Below, piece after piece: positions 5,889-53,462 of a stretch of DNA of 64,000 nt (the first letter of the stretch is position 1; every line of letters starts with the position of its first letter). This stretch comes from Candidatus Poribacteria bacterium (GTDB taxonomy: Bacteria; Poribacteria; WGA-4E; JAJDTR01): contig OZ240209.1 of assembly GCA_965197465.1 (NCBI GenBank), forward strand, positions 948,713 through 1,012,712. The letters run 5' to 3'. The notes under the pieces were generated by a model. The model had not been told where the DNA came from, did no database searches, and worked only from the letters and a program-made list of their open reading frames with translations. The position numbers and the translations under genes were made by a program.

Positions 5889-5960
5889 AAAATATCCCTC
5901 TCGTTCGCCAGTTTCCGGTCCGCATTTATCCGATTTAGATCAGCTCATTCGTGGTCCTTC

Positions 5961-6121
5961 AGAGCCTGTTTGAATAATCGGTAGCAGAGCCATTCTTGGT
6001 CGCTTATAGGAAGTTCCTTCATGCTTTTATTGTTGTCGGCTGTGTACCTGTCGCCCCTCTGGGGCTTTTAGAGGCTGGTGCGCAGTGCGCACCCTACAAA
6101 TGTACTTTTCAAACAGGCTCT
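5961..6121. mobile_element. MITE-like non-autonomous element, copy 1 (161 bp, no internal sub-repeats)
   Basis: It has perfect 14-bp terminal inverted repeats, AGAGCCTGTTTGAA (5961..5974) and TTCAAACAGGCTCT (6108..6121). The left module is ..aataatcggtagcagagccattcttggtc. The right module is ctctggggcttttagaggctggtgcgcagtgcgcaccctacaaatgtac, and it contains a GTAG-headed REP palindrome at 6077..6097 (minus orientation). Confidence 0.6.
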
Positions 6122-11155: not shown

Positions 11156-11386
11156 AGAACCTGTTTGAATAATCGGTGGCAAAGCTATTTTTGAGATTTT
11201 GAGAAAGATTTTTCATGTTTCCATTGTTGGCTGCTACATACCTGTAGGATTTCTATCGCAGTCGCTATTCGCTCCCTTGATCCCACTCTGGGGCTTTTTG
11301 AGGCTGGTAAGAGTTCTATCGCACTCCCTATGCAGTCGCTTGATCGCAGTGCGCACCCTACAAACTGTACTTTTCAAACAGGCTCT
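11156..11386. mobile_element. MITE-like element, copy 2 (231 bp, two internal sub-repeat units)
   Basis: The TIRs agaacctgtttgaa (11156..11169) and ttcaaacaggctct (11373..11386) are complementary at 13 of 14 positions. The left and right modules match copy 1. The interior has ggatttctatcgcagtcgctattcgctcccttgatccc and gagttctatcgcactccctatgcagtcgcttgatcgc. Confidence 0.6.
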
Positions 11387-19293: not shown

Positions 19294-19595
19294 ATTGTCT
19301 ACACCTCATTACCTCATTGAGCGTTGAGTTTGACCGCATTATATCATAATGACGGCAAAAACACAAGTCAACATCAATTGCTATTCCAGGCAATTACATC
19401 TGAATTTTGGTTGTGAATGCATCATTCACCTCGCTCTAGGTTGAGAAGAAGAGCGAAGAAAATCAATGACTTGATAATCAAGATTCCACAGGTATGGAAG
19501 GAAGAACCCCGTTTTCAAGAGAAAACTGTGTTGCATCTCGGCGAGTTGGGGAGAATTCTATCATACCGGGAGCTCTATCGCGCGGGATTTTCTAT

Positions 19596-19668
19596 GGGAT
19601 TTCTATCGCGTTCCTTATTCAGTCACTTGAGGGAATCTCTATCGCGTTCCCTATTCAGTCACTTGATC
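19596..19668. repeat. Two abutting copies of the dispersed 36-39-nt sub-repeat (GGGAT[TC]TCTATCGC-N-TTATTCA-N-CTTGATCC)
   Basis: gggatttctatcgcgttccttattcagtcacttgag is directly followed by ggaatctctatcgcgttccctattcagtcacttgatcc. The same unit recurs at 20995..21047, 29644..29682 (reverse), 55148..55225 and inside the MITE-like elements at 11.2 and 31.3 kb. Confidence 0.75.
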
Positions 19669-19856: not shown

Positions 19857-20846
19857 ATGTTGAAAACAATGCAACAGAGACACAGACGAGCATTGGTGGT
19901 TTTCGGTATTCTTTCGGTGCCAAGTTTGACGCTGCTCATGATGTTGGCTGCTCATGGACAAGCTCCGAGAGTGCGCAAGATTACGTTTGTCTCTAATAGA
20001 GATGGGAACAATGAGATCTACGTAATGAATGCCAACGGCAGGAACCCTCGAAGGCTTACGAATAATGATGCGGCTGACCGCACGCCGGCCTGGTCTCCCA
20101 ATGGTCAACGCATAGCATTTACCTCAGATAGAGATGGAAAAGGCCTCATTGAAATCTACATCATGGACGCTGATGGCAACAATCCTCGAAAGCTAACCGA
20201 CTCAATTGGAATCAACACGAATCCGTCATGGTCGCCCGGCGGGTCGAAGATTGTATTTCAATCAAGTAGGGATAGGAACAACGAGATCTACATACTGGAT
20301 CTTGACGACAAAAACACGCTCAACCTCACTAACAGTGACGACAGCGACGGAATGCCATCATGGTCTCCTGATGGACACAGGATTGTTTTTCACTCGAAGA
20401 GAGGACTGAATCTTGACATTTACGTGATGGATACCGAAGGACGCAACGAGAGACGGCTAACGGAAAACGCCGCTACAGACGACTCAGCTTCGTGGTCTGC
20501 GGACGGAGAAAAGATAAGCTTTCGCACGAGACGTGACGGCAATAACGAAATCTACGTTATGTCCCATGACGGCAAGAAGAAGCACAATCTTTCGAACAAT
20601 CCGGCGAGCGACGACTCTCCTTCTTGGTCTCCGGATGGAACAAAGATTATCTTCTCGTCAATGAGAGACGGCAATAACGAAATTTACGTGATGGACGAAG
20701 ACGGTAGAAATGTGAAAAGGCTTACAGAAAACAAGCAGAATGATAGTGATCCTGACTGGTATGACTCGCAGTTTGCGCGTGACGTTTCGCCAACCGAAAA
20801 ACAGCGTACAACGTGGGGATGGCTAAAACGGTACGTCGGACATTAA
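19857..20846 (+). CDS. Secreted TolB-like PD40 (WD40-like) beta-propeller repeat protein
   Basis: 329-aa ORF with a signal-like N-terminus. It has about 6 repeats of NNEIYVM[ND].dG.N.rrLT.N...D..PsWSPDG..I.F.S.RDG. The C-terminus is ...EKQRTTWGWLKRYVGH. Confidence 0.8.
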   Translation: MLKTMQQRHRRALVVFGILSVPSLTLLMMLAAHGQAPRVRKITFVSNRDGNNEIYVMNANGRNPRRLTNNDAADRTPAWSPNGQRIAFTSDRDGKGLIEIYIMDADGNNPRKLTDSIGINTNPSWSPGGSKIVFQSSRDRNNEIYILDLDDKNTLNLTNSDDSDGMPSWSPDGHRIVFHSKRGLNLDIYVMDTEGRNERRLTENAATDDSASWSADGEKISFRTRRDGNNEIYVMSHDGKKKHNLSNNPASDDSPSWSPDGTKIIFSSMRDGNNEIYVMDEDGRNVKRLTENKQNDSDPDWYDSQFARDVSPTEKQRTTWGWLKRYVGH

Positions 20847-20994
20847 CACCATTCAGGCTTATGAATTGCGAGAGTCACAAAACGGAGTCGCGATTCGGAG
20901 ATCGCTCCTACAGTTGACGAAGCGTTGGGTTTCACTCGAATTACCTACGTTTTCGGACGGAATGAAACATCGGAAGTCTTCTTTCCGTGCACAC

Positions 20995-21047
20995 GATTTC
21001 TATCGCGCGAAGATCTCTATCGCCTTCGTTATTCACTCAGTTGATCC
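20995..21047. repeat. Sub-repeat copy abutting the stop codon of the LamG gene
   Basis: gatttctatcgcgcgaagatctctatcgccttcgttattcactcagttgatcc. An upstream REP-like fragment ggagtcgcgattcggagatcgctcctacag (about 20886..20914) matches 11055..11085. Confidence 0.6.
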
Positions 21048-21970
21048 TACCGAGATTTCAGATCGCCCCACGTTATGGCTAGTTTGTTACGGGGGGCAAC
21101 TGCCAGACCAAGAAGTCCCACCGATTTGGATTCCAAACCCTCATTCATTAGAATCTTGAGATCAGCTACGCTCAATGCTTGGGCGGTAATGATGATGTCG
21201 TCGATCCATCCGGGAAACCAATTTCCGTCGCCGCCCGCCAAACCGCCCCCAGGACCGCCCCCTGCGATTCCGCAGCCGCCGATGTAGGTTGGATTTTTGG
21301 AACTTCCGTAGTGAATTAGGTCGCCGAGCTTTGGCAGATTCTTAACCTTCTTCAAGGCGCCGCGCCTGGCGTTACGGTAAATCGTAAACTGGTTTGTGTC
21401 GCCGACGACTGCCATGTGAACAAAACTGCCTTCGTCCGTCCACTGATTATCGCCACCGCTCGGAAGTTTCATAATGGTGGATACAGGCTTCAAGATATTC
21501 ACACCGCCGCGCCTCTCCGTAGTTGACGGAAACGTCAACACGGCATTAGAAGCAGGTCGATCGTTATACCACTCAAATACATTGGCTTGCTCAATAAAGG
21601 TTTCATTCGTGGCAGGTTTTCCCCACTTCTTGTGGTCTACCCTATTGAACCACCCGGCGGCGGTAAACTCTGTCAGCTCATTCATCAACGGTTTTCCAGG
21701 ATCTAGACACGTATCGGCTCCGACGGCAAGTTCAACCGCGCTGCCAAACTTTCCTTCTTCAATGAACTTGAACCTTCTGCCTCTCGGAGGTTTGGCATGG
21801 TTTCGATTGCCAGACCAGTCGCGTATCAAATCGTCGGCATCGTCCTCAAAGGTGTATGCCACGATAACTTTGCTCGGGTCAATCTCGCCAAAACTTTGAC
21901 TCATGGGTACAAGACCAATCCCAGCCAAAACAAGACAGATTAGAATTAACTGTGGCACAAATTTTATCAT
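21047..21970 (-). CDS. Secreted LamG/concanavalin-A-like lectin domain protein (paralog 1)
   Basis: 307-aa ORF with a signal peptide (LILICLVLAGIGLVPMS). LTEFTAAGWF, FVHMAVV, TIYRNA and WFPGWIDDIIIT are typical of Laminin_G_3-type jelly rolls. The C-terminus is LAVAPRNKLAITWGDLKSR. Confidence 0.65.
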   Translation of the reverse strand: MIKFVPQLILICLVLAGIGLVPMSQSFGEIDPSKVIVAYTFEDDADDLIRDWSGNRNHAKPPRGRRFKFIEEGKFGSAVELAVGADTCLDPGKPLMNELTEFTAAGWFNRVDHKKWGKPATNETFIEQANVFEWYNDRPASNAVLTFPSTTERRGGVNILKPVSTIMKLPSGGDNQWTDEGSFVHMAVVGDTNQFTIYRNARRGALKKVKNLPKLGDLIHYGSSKNPTYIGGCGIAGGGPGGGLAGGDGNWFPGWIDDIIITAQALSVADLKILMNEGLESKSVGLLGLAVAPRNKLAITWGDLKSR

Positions 21971-22145
21971 TGCAATCCCTTACTGTTGAACAATTGGGGT
22001 TGACGTCACATTCAGACAATCACAAATCATAGGTTACATAGCGCCGTCTTGCAACACACCGCTCCTGAAACATGACGAGTTGTGAACCTAGGTATGCCTG
22101 CTCTTCCTCACTCGCCTTGTGACTTGATGCGACGCTACTGTATTT

Positions 22146-23033
22146 CTAGTATTGTCTTTTCAGCCCACCCCATGTCGTAGCGAGTTTGCCGCCAGGTTTC
22201 ACAGCCAAACCGATAAGGGGTAACGATGTTAATCCGTTGTTCATAATCGCTTTGACATCCGCCAATTCAAGGGCTTCGCCAAAAATTGCTACCTCATCCA
22301 GAAGGCCAGGGAACCAATTGCCATCTCCCTGCCCGCCCAAATTTGCAGCCACGCCACAGCCGCCGATGTACGTGTTATTCCCAGACTTTCCAAAGTGGAC
22401 TACCTCTCCACCCTCTAGCTTGTTAAGGCGTTTCTTGGATACAAGCCTCCCATTGCGGTAAACGGTCATCTGAGATTTGTCCGCAATGACCGCCATATGA
22501 ACAAACGTGCCTTCGTCATCCCACTTATTATCAAGCCCCGGTAACTTGGAAATAGCTTGGACGGGTTTAAGCGCGTCGGGCTTCTTCTGAGTTCGAGGGA
22601 AAACCAGCAGTGCATTTGAACTCCGCCTATTGTTATACCACTCTATCACATTGCTCTGCTCAATGAATGTCTCATAACCACCCCAAGGCGGTCCCGGATC
22701 TCTATTGAACCAACCGACGAGCGTGAACTCCGTGAGTTCATTCAACAACGGTTTTCCCAGATCGAGACATACCTTCTTCCCAAATTCAAGTTCAACCGCG
22801 CTGCCAAACTTTCCCTCGTCAACGAATCTGAACGACTTTCCCTTATTGGGCTCAGCGTGGTTGCGTTTTCCTGACCAATCTCTAATCAGGTCTTTAACAT
22901 CCGGATCATCAAAAAGGAAAGCGGCGATAACCTTACTTGGATCGATTTCGGCGGAACTTACACCGGTGAATACAAGACCCATGCTAATTAAACCAACACA
23001 AATTAAGATGGTCAATGATAGCAACGTTTTCAT
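22146..23033 (-). CDS. Secreted LamG/concanavalin-A-like lectin domain protein (paralog 2)
   Basis: 295-aa ORF, clearly paralogous to 21047..21970 (IDPSKVIAA.F.DD..DLIRDWSG.RNHA....G..F.F..EGKFGSAVEL...). The C-terminus is LAVKPGGKLATTWGGLKRQY. Confidence 0.65.
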   Translation of the reverse strand: MKTLLSLTILICVGLISMGLVFTGVSSAEIDPSKVIAAFLFDDPDVKDLIRDWSGKRNHAEPNKGKSFRFVDEGKFGSAVELEFGKKVCLDLGKPLLNELTEFTLVGWFNRDPGPPWGGYETFIEQSNVIEWYNNRRSSNALLVFPRTQKKPDALKPVQAISKLPGLDNKWDDEGTFVHMAVIADKSQMTVYRNGRLVSKKRLNKLEGGEVVHFGKSGNNTYIGGCGVAANLGGQGDGNWFPGLLDEVAIFGEALELADVKAIMNNGLTSLPLIGLAVKPGGKLATTWGGLKRQY

Positions 23034-23508
23034 TGTAATTGCCTCACTTTCTGTTGGGTAGAAGTTGAATTACATGCAATCTTGTGTGAACATTCCGAAC
23101 TAATTAACCCAATGCGGACGATGAGAAACACGGTTGTTTCAGGCCTGAAAGTTTTCTCCAAGGATGGATTAACCCCGGCCAGGAACTTAATGATTTAGCG
23201 AGGCGGCATATTCAGGCAGCGGTTCGCCCCCGAAGGTAAAGACATCGGTGAGAAACCCAGTGTTTCATTGGAACGTTTGCCACGAAATACACATCGACCC
23301 GGCTTACGCGAATCTCATCCATCGCAAAAATCAAAAAACTCGGTCTATGTCTTGTTCCATAGCAAAAATCAAAAAAGCAGGAGAACAAACCACCCCGGAT
23401 GTGAGCCCAAAGAGTAATTCGCCTCCTGCTTTTTTCAGGTGACTTTCTAAGTTATGTATGAAGCGCGAAATGTTCAAACGCAGGTTTGGTGCGCTTCAAA
23501 CGGGCGAT

Positions 23509-24591
23509 CTACTTGGAAGTTTTGAGATCTCCCCAGGTGGTGGATAACTTACTCTGTGAGTCGACGGCTGTACCGCCGCTTGGGTCATCGTCAATCGTGA
23601 CAAAGTCAACGATACTATTTCCCAAACTCTCTTGCCAGACACCAACGCCGCCGGAGGTGTAAACGGGATCATCGCCTCTTGGGCTCCAATCAAGCAAGGG
23701 AGCGTCGGTATTTGCATCGTAAGATCCTTTTTCGCCATACCAGACACGGATGTTGTCGCCGTCGACCGCGATTTCTCCGCGCATCACATGGGCATTGTCC
23801 TGGGGCAGTCCACCGCGTCCATCACCCGGATTAAGTGCTCCAGAATTGACACCGGCGACCATGATTCCAGCGTCAAACATCATCACATGTTCAAGCGATC
23901 TGGTGTCTGGATTCGCCGGAACATCGGGGCCGCCGAGTCCCGTATCACAATGATGGTTATCCTCTTCGCCCTCCGTAACTTGACCGTCGCCATTTAGGTC
24001 GGTTCCGCGACCCTGGAAGAGGAAATCCGGGCTACAATCGAAGTTTAAGCAGCAGCCGGGTATGGCGCAGCCTTCCGCAATATCAATGATCGCGACGGAG
24101 GCGGTCTCATTGTATCCAAACGTGACTTGGTAACCCGTTCCCCAAGTTTCCGGGTGATGATTGTTCGGGAACTCATTCCATGCGAAGTCAAATGCCTCTC
24201 CCTGTTGTTGCCGCAGCGTAATGCCGACGCTGTCATCGTCACCCATTGAGAACTCCATAACGATTCTGCCATCGGCAAACACGTGGTCGGTCGGTACTTG
24301 CATCACGCCCGACTGCTTGCAACCTTCGCCAAGACGATAAAGCACAAGGCCTCTTGCCGGATCCATGTTCTTGAATTTGTCATTAGTTGGATCTATCAGA
24401 TTCTCGATGGTATCAATTATCCAGATGGAGTCAGGGTTTTCAGAACCATCATTCCAGGCGTCCTCGTCATTGGCATTTGCACCAACCGGGTTGTCGGCAT
24501 CCGGTCCATGGAATACAACCGTTGCTTGCGCTTGAACGAAGATCATGAGTGATAGCATGGTGACGAAGAGGAGGAATTTTACAATGTTCAT
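23509..24591 (-). CDS. Secreted protein of unknown function (possible interrupted jelly-roll); carries the same C-terminal motif
   Basis: 360-aa ORF with a signal peptide (LLFVTMLSLMIFVQAQA). It has an acidic/Gly-rich insert with several Cys (CAIPGCCLNFDC). The C-terminus is VDSQSKLSTTWGDLKTSK. Confidence 0.5.
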   Translation of the reverse strand: MNIVKFLLFVTMLSLMIFVQAQATVVFHGPDADNPVGANANDEDAWNDGSENPDSIWIIDTIENLIDPTNDKFKNMDPARGLVLYRLGEGCKQSGVMQVPTDHVFADGRIVMEFSMGDDDSVGITLRQQQGEAFDFAWNEFPNNHHPETWGTGYQVTFGYNETASVAIIDIAEGCAIPGCCLNFDCSPDFLFQGRGTDLNGDGQVTEGEEDNHHCDTGLGGPDVPANPDTRSLEHVMMFDAGIMVAGVNSGALNPGDGRGGLPQDNAHVMRGEIAVDGDNIRVWYGEKGSYDANTDAPLLDWSPRGDDPVYTSGGVGVWQESLGNSIVDFVTIDDDPSGGTAVDSQSKLSTTWGDLKTSK

Positions 24592-24822
24592 GTGTTATAT
24601 CTCCTATGAGTTGTTTATCATGTTGTTTCGAGCACGAGTGAGGAAGAATAAGGTCCCATCCTCGTATGACAGGTAATTTTCACTGGGTTACATTGTTATG
24701 TGCAGACATACATAATCCAAACAAAAACCATTATATGCTAAGTCCAAATCCTTGTCAAGCCTAAAATCAGATCTATTCGTCCTCCGAATTTTCCCGTTTT
24801 TGACATTTACAGGTGAACCGTG

Positions 24823-31211: not shown

Positions 31212-31516
31212 ATCCTGTTTGAATAATCGGTAGCAAAGCCATTTTTGGTCATTTGTAGGAAGGTTTTTATTGTTGTCTGCTACGTATCTGTCGGGATTTC
31301 TATCGCACTCGTTATTCACTCGTTTGATCCCGCGCTGGGACTTTGGTGCACGGGGTTTTGGCGTTTCTATACACCTTTAGGATCTCTATCGCAGTCGCTA
31401 TTCGCTCCCTTGATCCCCTCTGGGGCTTTTAGAGGCTGGTGCGCAGGGGATTTCTATCGCCTTCGCTATCCGCTCAGTTGATCGCACCCTACAAATGTAC
31501 TTTTCAAACAGGATCT
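31210..31516. mobile_element. MITE-like element, copy 3 (307 bp, about four internal sub-repeat units)
   Basis: It has perfect 14-bp TIRs, AGATCCTGTTTGAA (31210..31223) and TTCAAACAGGATCT (31503..31516). The left and right modules match copies 1 and 2. The left TIR overlaps the TAG stop (31209..31211) of the upstream gene. Confidence 0.6.
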
Positions 31517-35209: not shown

Positions 35210-38200
35210 GTGTTAGAGAAAGAGATGGCAAAGAGAAAAAGGGGGAAACCAGGCTTAAAGGCAGACCGCACGCGTCAAGCACATAATTCGCTAAGGGGAT
35301 ACCTCTATCAAATTTGGCATAGTGTCAATGCGTGGCTGGAGCTTGCAGAAGATGAGATTCTCTATTTGGAAGGTGCGGAGGACTTTGACAAAGTATCAGA
35401 TAACAACGCTGCGGTGACGCAAGTCAAAGCCACACAAGCCCCGATCACGCTTAGATCTCGGGACGTGAATGACGCTATTAACCACTATTGGGAACTGCGG
35501 ACGAACAATTCCGACCGGAGTGTAAATTTCCGTTTTCTCACATGCGCCAAGATAGGTGTAGAACAAGGAAATCCATTTGGAACAGGTAACCCGGGGCTTC
35601 AGGTCTGGAGCCGTTGTTCGGGAAATGAAGAAAGTATCAAAAAAATCTCCGACTTTTTGCAAACTGAAGGAAAGATATCCGAAGAAGTAAAAGATTTCCT
35701 CAAACAAGCTGAACCGCGAGAAATCTACGAACAACTCATTGAACCTGTTACTTGGGAAACGGATAGCAAACCCGCCAGGTTTGTTGTGCAATCCATACGT
35801 ACGACTCTTGTTCACCATGGTGACCGATACAGTATTCCACCTGCTGATGCTGAAAAGGTTGTTGATAATCTTCTCAAAGAAGTTTTGACAATAGCAACGG
35901 AGGAGGAAAATCGTACACTAACCCGAGAACACTTTTTGAGAATATTTGCCGAAAATACAAGAATAAGCCTTCCAATTCAGAATAGTTCAGCGCATCAACC
36001 GATACAGCTAAAGATCGTTCTTGATCATATTAAAGAAACACTCATTGCAGAGCCAGCCGATTTTAGTTTTGCATTTCAATCTCCAGTACAAAAGACGATT
36101 CCACCACTCTATCGTGATGTTACTCTAAGAGAAAACTTACTTACAAGCATCCAAGCCAAACTTCAATCAGAGGGCATAGTTGCCATTCATGGAGGAGCAG
36201 GGAGAGGAAAGACAACACTTGCAAAATTGACAGCTAATGCTATGGGGGGCTGCTGGTTTTGGCTGAGTTTCACAGATAGAGATTCATCTCAGATTGGCAA
36301 ACTTTTACAGCAACTTGCAGTTGAAGTCAGTAATCAATCTGAACAAATCAACATCGTTTTGGATGACTTAGACATACAACCTCAACAATTGCGCGAGTAT
36401 GAAGAAATGTTGGGGGTTCTGGTTTATAGGGTACTGGAACGTGGCGCAAAACTGCTGATTACAAGCCAGCATAAGCCACCTAATAGCCTTATCCGCCAAC
36501 TTGATGTCTCACCATCCATCGTCGTCCCTGTTCCAGACTTTACCTTATCCGAAATTGAGCAATTTGCCGAACGATTGGGATGCCCCGCAGATGACGCCAA
36601 GACTTGCGCACCATTGATTCAATTGCATACCAGCGGACACCCGAGGCTTGTGCACGCTCGACTCGCTCAATTACGTGAGGAAGACTGGAAGCCGCCAGAT
36701 ACAATTGAGGGTATCTTGCACACGCCCCTAGAGGTGGTTGAAGAACGTGAAACTGTGCGACAATTGCTCACAGAATTGCCGGATAATCATCAGGAATTTC
36801 TCTATAGACTGAGTTTGATGACTACTGAATTTAGAAAAGATTGCGCGGTCAACATCGGCGAGATACCGGAATCTGTACCTTATGCAGGGGATATTTTTGG
36901 TCAATTGGTTGGTCCTTGGATAGACCGTGTTAATGAATCCTACTACACAATCTCACCTTTACTGACCAATGCAGCCAAGCAAGTTTGGTCAGAGAGTAAG
37001 ATAAACGACCTTCACGCTCGGATTGCAGATGCAATTCTCAAAACAGGAAATCTGACCATATTAGAAGCACGGGCTGTGCTATTTCAAAGTATGCTTGGAC
37101 AAAACGAAATAGGCTTTATTGCTGTGATTTACGCATTGATAACCGCTCCGGAGGACAGTTGGGAAGAACTCAGCCGAGAATTCTCTTGGTTGATACTCGC
37201 TCAACCTGACATTCCCGAAAAGTTCTTTCCTGGGAACGATTCTGTAAATCATCTATTTCGCTCATTGCAATATCGTATTGCGGTCGAGGTAGAACCGGAA
37301 AGAGCGCCGAAGATACTTGAAATTTGGGATAAAGAAACCAAGCCGCACGAACCACATCAGTTGTATCTGTTGAATCGCCTAATGCTGGCAACGCAGGCAT
37401 TAATTTATTATCAAGTATCACTCCCGGCCAAGCAGATGGTAGGATATCTTAAAGAAGTTGCTGATATCACATGCAACAATAAAGACATTCAAGAAATATA
37501 CGATGATTCCATGGGACAATTGGAAGAACACGAAACTGACACAGCCAACTATTTCAGTTTTCTATTTAGTTTTGTTGTGGCACGTCGTCCTATTTACCCT
37601 CCATTCCTCAGTGACCTTATTGACGCCCTTGACGAGCTTCCAGCAAAAATTCGCACACTGTTATTGGCTGATTTCGAGGATGACAGTGTTGACTCTCGGC
37701 TTTTGATCGATGGTGTCTGGTGGTCAGAAGTAAACCGTGAGAATCCGGATTGGCAAAGATGTCTCCAGGTATTTGACAAAGTCATTGAAAAAGCTCTCGC
37801 CTGGGGTTATCCCCATCTGGCTGCGGCATCTGCAAGGAGTAAAGCCATTATTCACTATGAAAACCTGCATAATCCTGATGCCGCCCATAAAGTTCTCCAA
37901 GATTTTGTATCAAAAGTGGGGACATTACCAGTAATCGAGCGAGAACAAGCCAATGTATATTTGAGCCAAAAGCGTTACAAAGAAGCGCTCAGCATCTACG
38001 AGCGTATTCTCCCCGAGTGGAATCTATCTTCAGAAAAATTAGGCATTGGGCCTCTAGAAGAATATCGTCGAGCCGCTATTTGCGCCGCACATTTGAACGA
38101 TTGGGAGAAGGCGGCTACCTTTTTTGAAGCTGGAGCAAAAATAGTTCAAGTGATTGAGCACACTGAAATTAATATTGGTTTGTATGCAGATGCGGGATTC

Positions 38201-39502
38201 GCACATTTTAAGGCAGGCAATATGCTGGAGAGCACAAAGTTGTTAAATTTGGCATTGCAAGAATTTGAAAAGATGCCACAAGACAATACGGATATCAAGT
38301 ATTTTTCATTAAAACAACGTTTAGCGCACACCATAAGATGGATGGCAGAACAGAGCTGTGAAAATAATCCTTCAGAACTTGAAGAACCTCCAGTTGGTAT
38401 GTGCAGCAATCCGGAGCCAAATGAAAAAAATTCGACCCTTCCTGACTTCCCAATGGGATACGTTTGGTTCTACCTAGCGCAAATCGAGTTCAGATTTGGG
38501 TATGGAACAACAGTGTTGGAGCATGCCATGCGGATCTTAGACCGAGATGCATATCCTGCATTTAGTTCTCTTCTTGCTCCCCTTAAAATACAATATGATT
38601 TTAGAAACAAAACCTTTAATGAGTTGCCGGAACGTATACAGCAATTGGCGAATGCGTGTGACTCAATGCAGAATCATAAACTAAGCGGGACAGGGATTGA
38701 AGAACATAGAGTCAATTCTATACCTATTGCCAATCTACCCAACTTCGGTTCTGTTCCGAACATCATATCTATTTTGGGATCATCCCTTCTTGTCCGACTA
38801 CGAACAAGCAATAATGTGCAGGACATGCTGGTTATATGGCGATCAAAGTCTTCAGAATTACCCATAAAAGAAAACCTCATCGTTGCTCTTGATTTAATTG
38901 AATCAATGTTATCCAAAGATCTGAGTAACGCTTTGACAATTATGCACTCACAAAATTCCAGGCACGAAAACCGGCTTGCCGCAACATTAAAAATTGTTCA
39001 CAGTATTCAGACCAGTCCAGATAATCTCTTTTATGCCCACGTACTCATAACGACTGCACTCATTGGTAACTTATGGGAAGATTTTGTCGTGCTTGATTTA
39101 GCAGAGCTTCTTTCCGCGCAGTGGCTTGCAAAAATAAAATTCCCGGCGATGTTGAAAACACCTATGATTACGGTGCCCTTAATAGAACAAGCCTGTAAGG
39201 GCAGCGACACCGGAAAGAAAAAAATTGGCAAGATTCTTCTCGCCGCGCATCAAGCTATTTCACTCAGAGTGCCATCTACGACTTTACAACAGTTTCGCAG
39301 TTGGACAGAAGCTATACCAGAGCAAAAGCAGGAGCCGAAAATCGGACAGAATCCGATAGCACAACAGATCATCAAAGTGATGGAGAATCCACCGCATTTA
39401 ACCGATGAAGACGTTGAAGCAATGCGGCAGTCGATTGAGGAAGGGAAAATGCCTGTAAATTTCGATTCAATCTTTGATCAGGACGAATCTGAAGACCAAT
39501 GA
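35210..39502 (+). CDS. Large STAND-type P-loop NTPase with an N-terminal PD-(D/E)xK (DUF4297/Cap4-like) nuclease domain and C-terminal TPR-like helical repeats (Avs-like architecture)
   Basis: 1430-aa ORF with a GTG start in the track; ATG at 35225 (MAKRKRGKPG...) is the more likely start. The N-terminal LRGYLYQIWHSVNAWLEL..LYLEGAEDFD..VTQVKAT fits the GxxYQ / E-x2-ED / QxK layout. Walker A is IVAIHGGAGRGKTTLAKL (36191..36217) and Walker B is NIVLDDLD (36350..36373). TPR-like helices include YLSQKRYKEALSIYERIL, YRRAAICAAHLNDWEKAATFFEAG and GFAHFKAGNMLESTKLLNLAL. Confidence 0.65.
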   Translation: MLEKEMAKRKRGKPGLKADRTRQAHNSLRGYLYQIWHSVNAWLELAEDEILYLEGAEDFDKVSDNNAAVTQVKATQAPITLRSRDVNDAINHYWELRTNNSDRSVNFRFLTCAKIGVEQGNPFGTGNPGLQVWSRCSGNEESIKKISDFLQTEGKISEEVKDFLKQAEPREIYEQLIEPVTWETDSKPARFVVQSIRTTLVHHGDRYSIPPADAEKVVDNLLKEVLTIATEEENRTLTREHFLRIFAENTRISLPIQNSSAHQPIQLKIVLDHIKETLIAEPADFSFAFQSPVQKTIPPLYRDVTLRENLLTSIQAKLQSEGIVAIHGGAGRGKTTLAKLTANAMGGCWFWLSFTDRDSSQIGKLLQQLAVEVSNQSEQINIVLDDLDIQPQQLREYEEMLGVLVYRVLERGAKLLITSQHKPPNSLIRQLDVSPSIVVPVPDFTLSEIEQFAERLGCPADDAKTCAPLIQLHTSGHPRLVHARLAQLREEDWKPPDTIEGILHTPLEVVEERETVRQLLTELPDNHQEFLYRLSLMTTEFRKDCAVNIGEIPESVPYAGDIFGQLVGPWIDRVNESYYTISPLLTNAAKQVWSESKINDLHARIADAILKTGNLTILEARAVLFQSMLGQNEIGFIAVIYALITAPEDSWEELSREFSWLILAQPDIPEKFFPGNDSVNHLFRSLQYRIAVEVEPERAPKILEIWDKETKPHEPHQLYLLNRLMLATQALIYYQVSLPAKQMVGYLKEVADITCNNKDIQEIYDDSMGQLEEHETDTANYFSFLFSFVVARRPIYPPFLSDLIDALDELPAKIRTLLLADFEDDSVDSRLLIDGVWWSEVNRENPDWQRCLQVFDKVIEKALAWGYPHLAAASARSKAIIHYENLHNPDAAHKVLQDFVSKVGTLPVIEREQANVYLSQKRYKEALSIYERILPEWNLSSEKLGIGPLEEYRRAAICAAHLNDWEKAATFFEAGAKIVQVIEHTEINIGLYADAGFAHFKAGNMLESTKLLNLALQEFEKMPQDNTDIKYFSLKQRLAHTIRWMAEQSCENNPSELEEPPVGMCSNPEPNEKNSTLPDFPMGYVWFYLAQIEFRFGYGTTVLEHAMRILDRDAYPAFSSLLAPLKIQYDFRNKTFNELPERIQQLANACDSMQNHKLSGTGIEEHRVNSIPIANLPNFGSVPNIISILGSSLLVRLRTSNNVQDMLVIWRSKSSELPIKENLIVALDLIESMLSKDLSNALTIMHSQNSRHENRLAATLKIVHSIQTSPDNLFYAHVLITTALIGNLWEDFVVLDLAELLSAQWLAKIKFPAMLKTPMITVPLIEQACKGSDTGKKKIGKILLAAHQAISLRVPSTTLQQFRSWTEAIPEQKQEPKIGQNPIAQQIIKVMENPPHLTDEDVEAMRQSIEEGKMPVNFDSIFDQDESEDQ

Positions 39503-50924: not shown

Positions 50925-51542
50925 ATGAAACACCTAAACGCCCATTTACTAACACTCTTTTCACTCCTCTTGCTATTGAGATGGGCACCCGACTCCGAAG
51001 CGCGGGCATTCAGGCTAGCGAAACTTCCTGGCGGAGGGCCCAATTTCGGGTGTGCTGCGTGTCATATCAATCCTGGTGGCGGTGGGGAGCGAAACGCCTT
51101 CGGGCTAGATTACGAAGCAATAGGGCTAGCTGCTGGCGATGTGTACACCGACGAGTTAGGCCAAAAAGATTCGGACGGCGATGGCTTCTCTAACGATGAA
51201 GAGTTCAATTCTAATCCACCGACTGAGCCATGGAATCGCGATTCCCGCCCACCGAACGTGGCTGTGGAGCCACTCGGAAAGATGTTTGCGGTCTGGGCGC
51301 GGCTCAAGCTAGAACCGATTGGATCAGGTAGTCACTTCCAATCTACGTCTAAGAACACAGTTCCAGCATTGGCCACGACCTTCAAACGAACCCCTCAACC
51401 GATTCATCGGGAAGATTCCGCAGAAATTGAAGAGAACTCTTCAGTGGCAAAGGATCGGATTGTATCAGCAAATAAGCCTTTCACAAAAAGCTTGAAGAAA
51501 AACTTCAAGGCTGGCGCAAAATTGCGTGCGGCAAGCAAGTAG
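50925..51542 (+). CDS. Secreted putative c-type haem protein (single CxxCH) with a thrombospondin-type-3-like Ca-binding motif
   Basis: 205-aa ORF with a signal peptide (LLTLFSLLLLLRWAPDSEA). It has GCAACHINPGGGGERNAFG (CxxCH) and DSDGDGFSNDEE. The last ~80 aa are low-complexity and basic and may not be genuine coding sequence. Confidence 0.45.
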   Translation: MKHLNAHLLTLFSLLLLLRWAPDSEARAFRLAKLPGGGPNFGCAACHINPGGGGERNAFGLDYEAIGLAAGDVYTDELGQKDSDGDGFSNDEEFNSNPPTEPWNRDSRPPNVAVEPLGKMFAVWARLKLEPIGSGSHFQSTSKNTVPALATTFKRTPQPIHREDSAEIEENSSVAKDRIVSANKPFTKSLKKNFKAGAKLRAASK

Positions 51543-52037: not shown

Positions 52038-53462
52038 ATGGAAATGAATACAAACGTGAAACATCTGTGTCTGCGGATACCCTTGTTCCCTTGGTTACTC
52101 GTAATCATCGCTTCATCTATCGGGGCGGAAGCCGTCGACAATACTCACCATCAGAAAACCTTGAACTTGACGCTTGAAGAGAGCATTGTACGGGCTCAGG
52201 CAAACAATTTGAACGTTCTTTCACTCAAAGAGAAAGTTCGAACCGCTGAAGCCCAGGTTCGAGTCGCACGGGCTCGCCTTTTACCATACGTATCCGTTAC
52301 CAGCAACTACACGTATTTTAAAGACTTGTCCCGGTCTGTTCTTGAATTTGGCAATGGCGGGTTCCCGGCGTTTCCTAGTGTGGATGGCATGGCACAGAAC
52401 GGAGGGGATGGTTCGGAGCAGTCAGTCATTGAGATTGAATTCGGTGCGCATCACAACCTCCAAGCAACGCTCGGTCTGCGCCAGCCTGTCTTTGCGTGGG
52501 GTCGCTATTTCAAGGCGTATCAAGGGGCACAACTGGATTTGGAAGCTGTAAGAACTGAGTTGCAGTCGGGCTTAAATCAACTTTCCCTTGACGTGTCGGA
52601 AGCATTTCACGGCGTACTCCTCGCACAAGAATTCGCGAAAGTTGCGCGGCAAAGCGTCGCTCTCGTGCAAGAGCAACTCAATATGGCACAAAAGCGGTTT
52701 GACGCAGGCGCCGTCACAAACTTTGATGTGTTGCGTGCCGAGGTACAGTTGGCTAATACCAAAACTCAACTGATACAGGCGCGAAATCGTGTAGTCGTTG
52801 CCCAAAACGCCTTCAAAAACCTACTCAACATCGATCTTGCTGACGAGATTCACCTGACCGGAAGTTTCAAGTTCCTAGAGGAATCAGATCTCGAACTCGA
52901 CGCTCTTATGCTACTAGCCAAGGAGAACCGTCCTGAGATTCAGCAACTTGAACTCAGTGAGGCTGCCGGTCAGAAGCGTGTAGATGTCGCGAAAACAGGC
53001 AATCGTCCTGATGTCTCCCTGTTTTCAAACTATCAAGTTGATGACAACGAAAAACTCACGAAGATGAACCGCATCTGGAATATCGGTGTACAGATTAACA
53101 TCCCAATCTTTGATGGCATCGCGACTCGGGCAACCGTACAGCAGGCGAAATCCGGGTTGAAACAGACGCAACTTGCCAAACAGCAAAGAATCAATATTGT
53201 AGAATTTGAGGTAAGGACGGCTTATCTCAACCTCATACAGGCGAAGTCATCAATTGCTGTGCAGAAGGAGACAGTAGCCCAAGCCGTGGAAAGTATGCGG
53301 ATCGCAAATCTGCGTTACGACAACGGGATGCTTACCAGCGTCGAGTTGACTGATACACAACTCGCTCTTGCCCAAGCAGAAGTCAATCATCTTCAAGCGA
53401 GACACGATTATGTAGTCGAATTTGCGCGGTTGGAGAGAGCGGTAGGCCAGCCATTGAGGTAA
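52038..53462 (+). CDS. TolC family outer-membrane efflux protein
   Basis: 474-aa ORF with a signal peptide. It has two OEP repeats with the typical LTLEESIVRAQANN start, plus ...RFDAGAVTNFDVLRAEVQLANTK... and ...RYDNGMLTSVELTDTQLALAQAE... Confidence 0.8.
   Translation: MEMNTNVKHLCLRIPLFPWLLVIIASSIGAEAVDNTHHQKTLNLTLEESIVRAQANNLNVLSLKEKVRTAEAQVRVARARLLPYVSVTSNYTYFKDLSRSVLEFGNGGFPAFPSVDGMAQNGGDGSEQSVIEIEFGAHHNLQATLGLRQPVFAWGRYFKAYQGAQLDLEAVRTELQSGLNQLSLDVSEAFHGVLLAQEFAKVARQSVALVQEQLNMAQKRFDAGAVTNFDVLRAEVQLANTKTQLIQARNRVVVAQNAFKNLLNIDLADEIHLTGSFKFLEESDLELDALMLLAKENRPEIQQLELSEAAGQKRVDVAKTGNRPDVSLFSNYQVDDNEKLTKMNRIWNIGVQINIPIFDGIATRATVQQAKSGLKQTQLAKQQRINIVEFEVRTAYLNLIQAKSSIAVQKETVAQAVESMRIANLRYDNGMLTSVELTDTQLALAQAEVNHLQARHDYVVEFARLERAVGQPLR

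Follow-up and report, generated by a model that had tools for sequence, protein, structure and literature searches.

A conserved TTWG tail on unrelated exported proteins of Poribacteria, a candidate sorting or docking tag

We analysed a stretch of 64,000 nucleotides from a Candidatus Poribacteria bacterium (GenBank assembly GCA_965197465.1, contig OZ240209.1, positions 948,713 to 1,012,712 of the forward strand), referred to below as the window; positions and strands are those of the window unless another locus is named. Four consecutive genes for exported proteins lie between 19857 and 24591, and their products end in nearly the same short peptide, here called the TTWG tag. The first gene (19857..20846, + strand) encodes a PD40 beta-propeller of 329 amino acids (aa) with an N-terminal hydrophobic segment and six repeats (Pfam PD40, 4.9e-53). 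Its C-terminus reads ...DVSPTEKQRTTWGWLKRYVGH both in the list of open reading frames (ORFs) and in a six-frame motif scan, and between the tag core DVSPTEKQRTTWGWLK (20781..20828, + strand) and the stop codon there are 5 further aa. This core scored 35.7 bits against a hidden Markov model (HMM) of the tag, of which the PD40 tail is itself a training member. The other three genes are on the − strand. LamG-1 (21047..21970) encodes a LamG-like protein of 307 aa with a weak Pfam Laminin_G_3 match, which ends in ...LAVAPRNKLAITWGDLKSR; its tag core AVAPRNKLAITWGDLK (21056..21103, −, 38.1 bits) is followed by SR and the stop. LamG-2 (22146..23033) encodes a Laminin_G_3 protein of 295 aa (Pfam PF13385 at 8e-11) ending in ...LAVKPGGKLATTWGGLKRQY, with the tag core AVKPGGKLATTWGGLK (22158..22205, −, 44.6 bits) followed by RQY and the stop. 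The last gene (23509..24591) encodes a lineage-specific protein of 360 aa that has no Pfam or NCBIfam match and a C-terminal part that looks ConA/DUF1080-like. It ends in ...TAVDSQSKLSTTWGDLKTSK, and its tag core AVDSQSKLSTTWGDLK (23521..23568, −, 31.9 bits) precedes TSK and the stop. The four genes sit between MetRS and ThuA/RecX/AlaRS.

The tails of the four ORFs can be written as [L/T]-A-V-x-P-x-G-K-L-A-T-T-W-G-x-L-K plus 2–5 residues. The original prediction, made from the sequence alone, was that four adjacent signal-peptide-like ORFs end near-identically, and its C-termini and coordinates proved exact in the ORF list and the motif scan. The back-translated pattern K-x3-T-W-G-x-L-K matched the window at 20799–20828 (+), 21056–21085 (−), 22158–22187 (−) and 23521–23550 (−) and nowhere else in it, while none of 100 dinucleotide-preserving shuffles contained any match. 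Each of the four matches ends 2–5 codons short of an in-frame stop, and each of the long ORFs concerned begins with a signal-like segment. The further claim that the four proteins have different folds was overstated for the window, where there are ∼2–3 folds, and it does hold across the phylum, where BLAST separates the carriers into at least 25 unrelated clusters. LamG-1 is a paralogue of LamG-2, the two being about 53–58% identical in the match table and by alignment. The last ∼86 columns of the 360-aa protein align with DUF1080/ConA-like tag proteins at an hhalign probability of 94%, which is partly driven by the tag. This protein has one homologous cluster only (88% identity), and AlphaFold2, run on an alignment of two sequences, gave a mean predicted local distance difference test score (pLDDT) of 29, at which no fold could be assigned.

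The DNA coding for the tag in the four window copies is only 48–65% identical pairwise, and identical tag residues are specified by different codons in 3/8 to 8/10 of the cases, depending on the pair. The DNA 3′ of the four stop codons is unrelated. A recent duplication of a 3′ DNA segment, which would have undone the original prediction, is thus contradicted by the low nucleotide identity and the mostly different codons. A DNA or RNA element overlapping the gene ends was also considered and is ruled out by the codon evidence. Homologues whose bodies share only 23–30% identity with LamG-2 nevertheless retain the ending AVSPGGKLATTWGGLK or AVSPAGSLTTTWGGLK. That the tail is far better conserved than the domain to which it is attached is a mark of selection on the peptide itself, and we conclude that the tag is real and under strong purifying selection.

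A logo of 324 unique tails gives the consensus [L/T]-[A/S/P]-V-[E/S/D]-P-x-[G/D]-K-L-[A/T/S]-T-T-W-G-x-[L/I]-K followed by 1–4 residues, among which R, S, Q and K are frequent; as a single peptide the consensus reads GLAVEPAGKLATTWGQLKSR. Two lysines are near-invariant (97% and 99%), with an invariant V-x-P upstream; within V-[E/S/D]-P, E is found in 40% and P in 84% of the tails. The PD40 propellers bear a variant with a one-residue insertion (KLLTTQWGEIKKE).

To see how far the tag extends beyond the window, we searched 1.84 billion representative proteins with HMMER, using a profile of 22 positions made from 22 tails (profile A4), and obtained 313 protein clusters at E ≤ 1e-3. The final lysine was 0–5 residues from the C-terminus in 138 of the 144 new proteins listed. 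Many of the listed matches are gene fragments on short contigs, and the full-length ones measure 190–380 aa. A word-indexed protein search with a tag-only profile returned 14 short fragments and was of little use for the distribution. In addition, 185,579 species-representative genomes were scanned with back-translated V-x-P-x2-K-[L]-x2-T-W-G-x-[L/I/F/M/V]-K, a pattern for which we estimate from its information content ∼6 chance matches in the whole collection. The scan gave at least 118 loci of eight kilobases with the pattern. In these loci an in-frame stop follows within 5 codons of 121 of the 130 pattern matches and within 12 codons of all of them. As the pattern itself holds no stop codon, this is an unbiased test of position, and it bears out an enrichment at C-termini. 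With 313 protein clusters and at least 118 genome loci, the tag is also clearly not confined to the neighbouring genes in which it was noticed.

Among the matches listed, 113 of 118 loci are titled Candidatus or uncultured Poribacteria and the remaining 5 “uncultured bacterium”; no other named phylum was found among these 118 loci, the order of scanning being unspecified. The sole protein cluster with an organism in its source name is likewise from Poribacteria. The listed loci come both from symbionts of sponges and corals (WGA-3G, AGPOR5, MSPOR6, PCPOR1, Plut_, SB06xx) and from free-living sources, namely closed long-read metagenome-assembled genomes (MAGs), a 3000-m ocean MAG and a hot-spring MAG. 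Several genomes give 3–6 tag genes each, which are lower bounds from the listed loci, and tandem arrays of 2–4 are common. Contigs of ENA sample ERZ25072076 are close relatives of the window, among them a syntenic locus with 92–97% nucleotide identity (L001). This locus was reached through a 95%-identical orthologue of LamG-2, as a search for the exact LamG-2 sequence gave no record.

The listed loci contain at least 164–168 tag-bearing ORFs, of which 141 are full-length, with a median of 259 aa and an interquartile range of 248–272 aa. An N-terminal signal-like segment is found in 140 of the 141 full-length carriers, compared with 200 of 600 neighbouring ORFs, and a later transmembrane-like segment in just 4 of the 141. 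With the tails removed, the carriers fall into 25 clusters unrelated by BLAST, the biggest of which is LamG-like with 76 members. The bodies match Laminin_G_3, 3-keto-disaccharide hydrolase/DUF1080, CBM9, CBM_4_9, F5/8 type C, DUF3108-like and PD40 domains, and many have no match; one cluster is named mutarotase by its source and is Kelch-like in our reading. Judged by these sequence matches, the carriers appear to be mostly small lectin-like domains or propellers.

The last 22 residues of the tailed proteins have a mean Kyte–Doolittle hydropathy of −0.4, and the best 10-residue window within the last 25 residues averages 0.49, so that there is no hydrophobic window. The predicted absence of a hydrophobic helix from the tag is thereby confirmed. 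An AlphaFold2 model of LamG-2 based on 19 homologues has a confident body (predicted template modelling score 0.77) that resembles ConA-like lectin domains in the PDB. Residues 275–295 are modelled as coil with a pLDDT of ∼33, and in this model the tail is left outside the LamG fold. The tag had been described as beta-strand-like, for which the model offers a low-confidence coil instead.

No match to the tail was found in NCBIfam and Pfam, whether full proteins (E ≤ 1) or tail-only sequences (E ≤ 10) were used, which agrees with the earlier view that the tag is unlike PEP-CTERM, LPXTG and GlyGly-CTERM as represented by the NCBIfam sorting-signal models. A sequence search of the PDB with the tag profile gave chance matches only, for example an internal GGKTATTWG in CueO, and a full-text search of the literature for this tail or for sorting or secretion tags in Poribacteria found nothing relevant. 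The tag is therefore apparently undescribed so far.

Small C-terminal sorting signals have been defined by seven attributes (Haft, bioRxiv 10.1101/2023.06.07.544157), and all characterised ones are cleaved (bioRxiv 10.1101/2023.06.07.544157). The tag shares five of the attributes: its position, its multiplicity, its invariant signature residues (V, P, K, L, T, W, G and K), the signal peptides of its carriers and the fact that these are unrelated. The terminal basic cluster is only weakly present, as the 1–4 residues after the final lysine are enriched in R, K, S and Q and usually contain one basic residue, not several together, and the strongly hydrophobic transmembrane region is absent. The tag resembles the small tripartite signals (LPXTG, PEP-CTERM, GlyGly-CTERM, MYXO-CTERM and relatives) in lying at the extreme C-terminus in several copies per genome, in its near-invariant residues, in its signal-peptide carriers of unrelated families, in its short basic-enriched end and in its occurrence in one lineage. 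It differs from them in that the conserved motif fills the whole tag and not just its start. Compared with PEP-CTERM, the substrate signal of exosortase (TIGR02595), it has neither P-E-P nor a transmembrane helix nor an NCBIfam match, and compared with LPXTG/sortase and GlyGly-CTERM/rhombosortase it lacks the signature motif, the transmembrane segment and a model match. As the tag has no hydrophobic segment, a sorting enzyme that lies in the membrane or is anchored to it could not recognise the tag in the way it does these signals.

The C-terminal domains (CTDs) of type IX secretion system (T9SS) substrates (type A, TIGR04183/PF18962; type B, TIGR04131) also share features with the tag. Like the tag they are C-terminal, are carried by Sec-exported proteins with many different folds, among them lectin-like, CBM and propeller bodies, contain no membrane helix and serve many cargoes per genome. 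In contrast to the tag, which has ∼20 residues, is modelled as coil and does not match TIGR04183 or PF18962, they are folded beta-sandwiches of ∼70–100 residues. The PD40 protein has a sub-threshold TIGR04183 match of 18.9 bits, which covers a propeller blade (residues 259–295) outside the tail. Two proteins at a locus from the same ENA sample as L001 (L121, 11402–13591 and 17223–18788) do pass the TIGR04183 cut-off of 23 bits, with 33.4 and 28.2 bits. They are larger than the tag carriers, are encoded downstream of tag genes at distances of 0.6 kb and 6.4 kb, and end in a CTD of ∼90 residues, QN[YF]PNPFNPETW...SGLYFY...[KR]M[IV]ILK followed by the stop. These sequence matches suggest a T9SS-like export route in Poribacteria, and we know of no description of such a route in this phylum. 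As Poribacteria carry classical T9SS type A CTDs in addition to the tag, they have at least two distinct C-terminal signals. Classical T9SS type A-like CTDs were also observed at loci L090, L120 and L122–L124, the form common to these and L121 being QN[YF]PNPFNPETW...[KR]M.[IL][LV]K before the stop, and a 729-aa YWTD-repeat protein of L121 carries, by our reading of its sequence, a dockerin-like DxNxDGxVNxxD repeat.

Dockerins are calcium-binding duplicated modules of ∼60–70 residues. The dockerin–cohesin system is like the tag in that a small C-terminal module docks diverse cargo on one scaffold; the tag has no Pfam match to dockerin (PF00404) and no loop of the D-x-D-x-D-G type. Encapsulin loading peptides are short and C-terminal, follow a flexible linker and have a G-S-L-[K/R]-like core, which is reminiscent of W-G-x-L-K in the tag. 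Encapsulin cargo, however, is cytoplasmic and without signal peptide, whereas 140/141 tag carriers are signal-like. Both an encapsulin loading peptide and a bacterial microcompartment encapsulation peptide are ruled out by the signal peptides of the carriers and by a tail that is not helical.

The generic neighbours of tag genes in the listed loci are the paralogue-rich PhyH and Gfo/Idh/MocA families. More specific are an exported TPR protein, in at least 18 of the 118 listed loci, and an exported FG-GAP_3/UnbV_ASPIC protein, in at least 17. The two are usually paired on the same strand as the tag genes and usually less than 200 bp from them, which was seen in at least 11 loci, and in our reading of the gene maps these loci represent ∼8–9 distinct locus types. 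The adjacent tag genes belong to LamG, DUF1080-like and unannotated clusters (1, 7 and 8). The pair came up once more in an independent look-up, at ∼3.4 kb from two tag genes. The recurrent order is operon-like, with the exported TPR protein followed by the FG-GAP_3/UnbV_ASPIC (CRTAC1-like) protein and then by 1–3 TTWG-tagged proteins, as at L117 1412–5233, L106 2207–6833, L085 3970–7847, L102 1483–4526, L121 8622–17148 and others. A fusion of extracytoplasmic function (ECF) sigma factor and anti-sigma factor is also near tag genes in at least 13 loci; its spacing and orientation are inconsistent, and it was rejected as a specific partner. By Pfam, no secretion or sorting gene was found near the tag cluster among ten window ORFs (26.8–44.6 kb) and the labels of L001. 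In a single context from one metagenome (L125 and L126, 20–3569), a LamG tag-gene pair is located directly downstream of genes for Omp85 (BamA-like) and OmpH (Skp-like).

Short C-terminal addresses read by TPR proteins are known from other systems: the peroxisomal targeting signal PTS1 (SKL-type) is read by the TPR receptor PEX5, the beta-signal of outer membrane proteins by the TPR lipoprotein BamD, and EEVD by Hop. By analogy, the tag may be a short unstructured C-terminal address read in trans by a soluble receptor, as PTS1 and the beta-signal are. The details differ, since PTS1 consists of the last 3 residues and requires the free carboxylate, whereas the last 1–4 residues of the tag are variable and the conserved block is upstream of them. 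The beta-signal ends in an aromatic residue and is found on beta-barrel proteins, again unlike the tag. The TPR neighbours are tied to the tag by gene adjacency alone, unlike PEX5 and BamD to their signals. The exported TPR and FG-GAP/ASPIC pair is nevertheless our only lead to a receptor, and we treat it as a lead, not as a finding.

We lean, cautiously, towards the reading that the tag is a sorting or docking peptide, recognised in trans, for lectin-like envelope proteins and characteristic of Poribacteria. It is best read as a short linear recognition peptide of ∼20 residues, joined by a flexible linker to unrelated, small, Sec-exported and mostly single-domain proteins. Once the protein has crossed the inner membrane, a receptor common to all carriers, periplasmic or located in the outer membrane, would bind the unstructured tail in trans and bring the cargo to a shared destination, so that the cargo would be either exported across the outer membrane or tethered to the cell surface. 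That the tail is recognised in trans, where the cargo goes and which protein is the receptor are inferred, as is the dedicated secretion, attachment or processing system put forward in the original prediction. Conservation is contiguous and near-complete from K(−5) to K(+4), which suggests that the peptide is enclosed by its partner and not touched on one face only; together with P-x-[G/D]-K, it suggests a turn and, after it, a segment that would have both faces buried in the complex. Being so hydrophilic, the tag could not span a membrane and so would not work in the manner of sortase, exosortase or rhombosortase signals, and for a folded CTD of the T9SS type it lacks both length and structure. 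We consider it possible, if rather doubtful, that the TTWG tail addresses proteins to a new Poribacteria-specific pathway for envelope sorting or surface display, with the TPR and FG-GAP/ASPIC proteins as a possible receptor.

Several points weigh against a sorting or docking peptide. The neighbourhood analysis identified no partner gene for the tag. The counts of TPR and ASPIC genes come without a background frequency, and such genes can be paralogue-rich. A tblastn search of the window at E ≤ 1e-3 with the UnbV, TPR, ECF sigma, SUMF1 and ABC-2 neighbours gave no match, which speaks against the TPR/ASPIC pair in particular. The window tag genes stand in a housekeeping setting (MetRS, RecX and AlaRS). 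The low AlphaFold2 confidence signifies that the tail has no packed conformation in the model, which is no proof of binding in trans. The signal-like segments were called by a crude hydropathy test and not by a trained predictor. The values of 100% in the logo arise partly by construction, as the collecting regular expression and the DNA pattern demanded W, K and other residues. Finally, a restriction of the tag to Poribacteria is strongly suggested, but not proven, by the matches listed.

Of the other explanations, it is unlikely, if the least so, that the tag serves processing or covalent attachment, either as a pro-peptide cut by a periplasmic protease or through a lysine that is linked to peptidoglycan, glycan or protein. 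Parallels are the C-terminal lysine of Braun lipoprotein and the transpeptidation of the sortase type, here without a membrane anchor. The two near-invariant lysines with the invariant V-x-P upstream, and the position at the extreme C-terminus before a short variable basic tail, would suit such a role, as would the analogy with the small sorting signals, whose characterised members are all cleaved. Yet no gene for a protease, transpeptidase or ligase is recurrently adjacent in the listed loci, and the conserved lysine is not the terminal residue as it is in Lpp. Processing also overlaps with a sorting or docking peptide, as both need recognition in trans. Somewhat less likely again is self-association, in which a tail would pair with another tail or with the domain of another tagged protein, perhaps through exchange of strands. 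The small lectin-like modules would then form multivalent homo- or hetero-oligomers, periplasmic or extracellular, without receptor or secretion machine. The flexible tail conserved on both faces, the frequent tandem arrays of 2–4 paralogues and the single glycan-binding-type domains of most carriers, for which multivalency helps, are compatible with it. The same tail is found on at least 25 unrelated bodies, however, so there is no common domain surface to bind, and a hydrophilic peptide of 20 residues with neither heptads nor an amphipathic helix would be a poor oligomerisation unit.

We regard it as improbable that the tag is a minimal or alternative T9SS-like signal, be it a cut-down version of the last CTD strand or a binder of a T9SS shuttle or scaffold. 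T9SS CTDs and the tag both end in a hydrophobic residue and a lysine near the terminus, the tag carriers are like T9SS substrates in their high number per genome, their Sec signals and their lectin, CBM or propeller bodies, and of the poribacterial CTDs that pass TIGR04183 two lie close downstream of tag genes. The tail of ∼20 residues is far from a CTD of ∼90, though, and neither its coil model nor its lack of a TIGR04183 or PF18962 match speaks for kinship; the one sub-threshold match of the PD40 protein is to its propeller blade. That the tag has no function of its own, and stems from a duplicated 3′ segment, a DNA or RNA element or chance resemblance among neighbours, is almost certainly wrong. 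The adjacency of the four genes, two of them paralogous, and the REP-like repeats in the flanking intergenic DNA (described below) could have pointed that way. We consider this explanation already refuted by the conservation at the protein level, the synonymous codon differences and low nucleotide identity, the unrelated downstream DNA of the four genes, an expectation of 0 chance matches in the window and the occurrence of the tag in 313 clusters and at least 118 loci.

Poribacteria are an uncultured phylum known mainly as sponge symbionts, in which “eukaryote-like” binding domains have been proposed to take part in host interaction. The tag unites a large and formerly unconnected set of exported lectin-like proteins from this phylum. 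Should it address proteins to a new pathway of envelope sorting or surface display, a soluble or outer-membrane receptor would capture an unstructured C-terminal peptide of 20 residues and deliver dozens of small lectin-like modules per cell to the surface. This would be a third principle beside the membrane-anchored signals of the sortase type and the folded domains of the T9SS, and glycan-binding proteins could be displayed by this route in the sponge symbionts and in free-living Poribacteria. Several kinds of envelope machinery were discovered through short C-terminal signals, namely sortases, exosortases, rhombosortases, archaeosortases, myxosortases and the T9SS. As the tag has neither the transmembrane helix of the small signals nor the T9SS fold, its reader must work differently. 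The 22-position profile now retrieves tagged proteins, which makes phylogenetic profiling for the receptor and proteomics of cleavage feasible, and digestion with trypsin would yield the core L-[A/T]-T-T-W-G-x-[L/I]-K as a peptide.

A degenerate tag, NVAVEPLGKMFAVWARLK, is found inside a further exported protein of the window, a CxxCH protein of 205 aa (50925–51542), at 51255..51308 on the + strand, where it is followed by a low-complexity extension of 77 aa. It had been put forward as a weaker internal copy of the tag. On the one hand, the segment is not among the 12 best matches to the tag HMM, the weakest of which has 1.5 bits. On the other hand, a 55%-identical homologue of 141 aa (L127, 702–1127) ends in AVEFNRKRTTFWASLK plus 9 aa, which favours the claim. 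Judged by this comparison of sequences, the segment is plausibly a decayed tag, the window version having lost a stop codon or gained an extension. The 77-residue extension is seen in the window only and not in L127. Both proteins bear a DSDGDGFSNDEE motif, which in our reading resembles a calcium-binding loop. The ORF at 52038–53462 is TolC-like, again by our reading of its sequence.

Upstream of the gene for the 360-aa tag protein, a sigma-70 consensus promoter TTGACA-17-TATAAT was found at 24730..24758 (− strand), identical to the consensus at all 12 hexamer positions. It is no more than a match to the consensus, and the region as a whole does not hold more promoter-like sites than expected from shuffled sequence. 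The window has 12 copies of a REP-like 12-mer, GATYTCTATCGC, counted with at most one mismatch, compared with 0.5 expected. Its sites are clustered in intergenic DNA (11248–11322, 19570–19645, 20995–21023 and 31295–31460, also 29669 and 55150), and they lie on both flanks of the PD40 tag gene and within an intergenic element resembling a miniature inverted-repeat transposable element (MITE). This MITE-like element is present at 5959–6118 and 31213–31512, bounded by the inverted repeats CCTGTTTGAATAATCGGTAGCA ... TTTTCAAACAGG, and the second copy holds three inserted units of ∼40 bp each. Pieces of it match the Poribacteria loci L001, L028, L037, L088 and L120 at 67–97% identity. Finally, the window encodes a STAND-type NTPase of 1430 aa (35210–39502) with weak NACHT, NB-ARC and NPHP3_N matches as well as TPR_12. 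This stretch has the lowest G+C content of the window (43–44% compared with ∼49%), and the NTPase may be an acquired defence or signalling gene.

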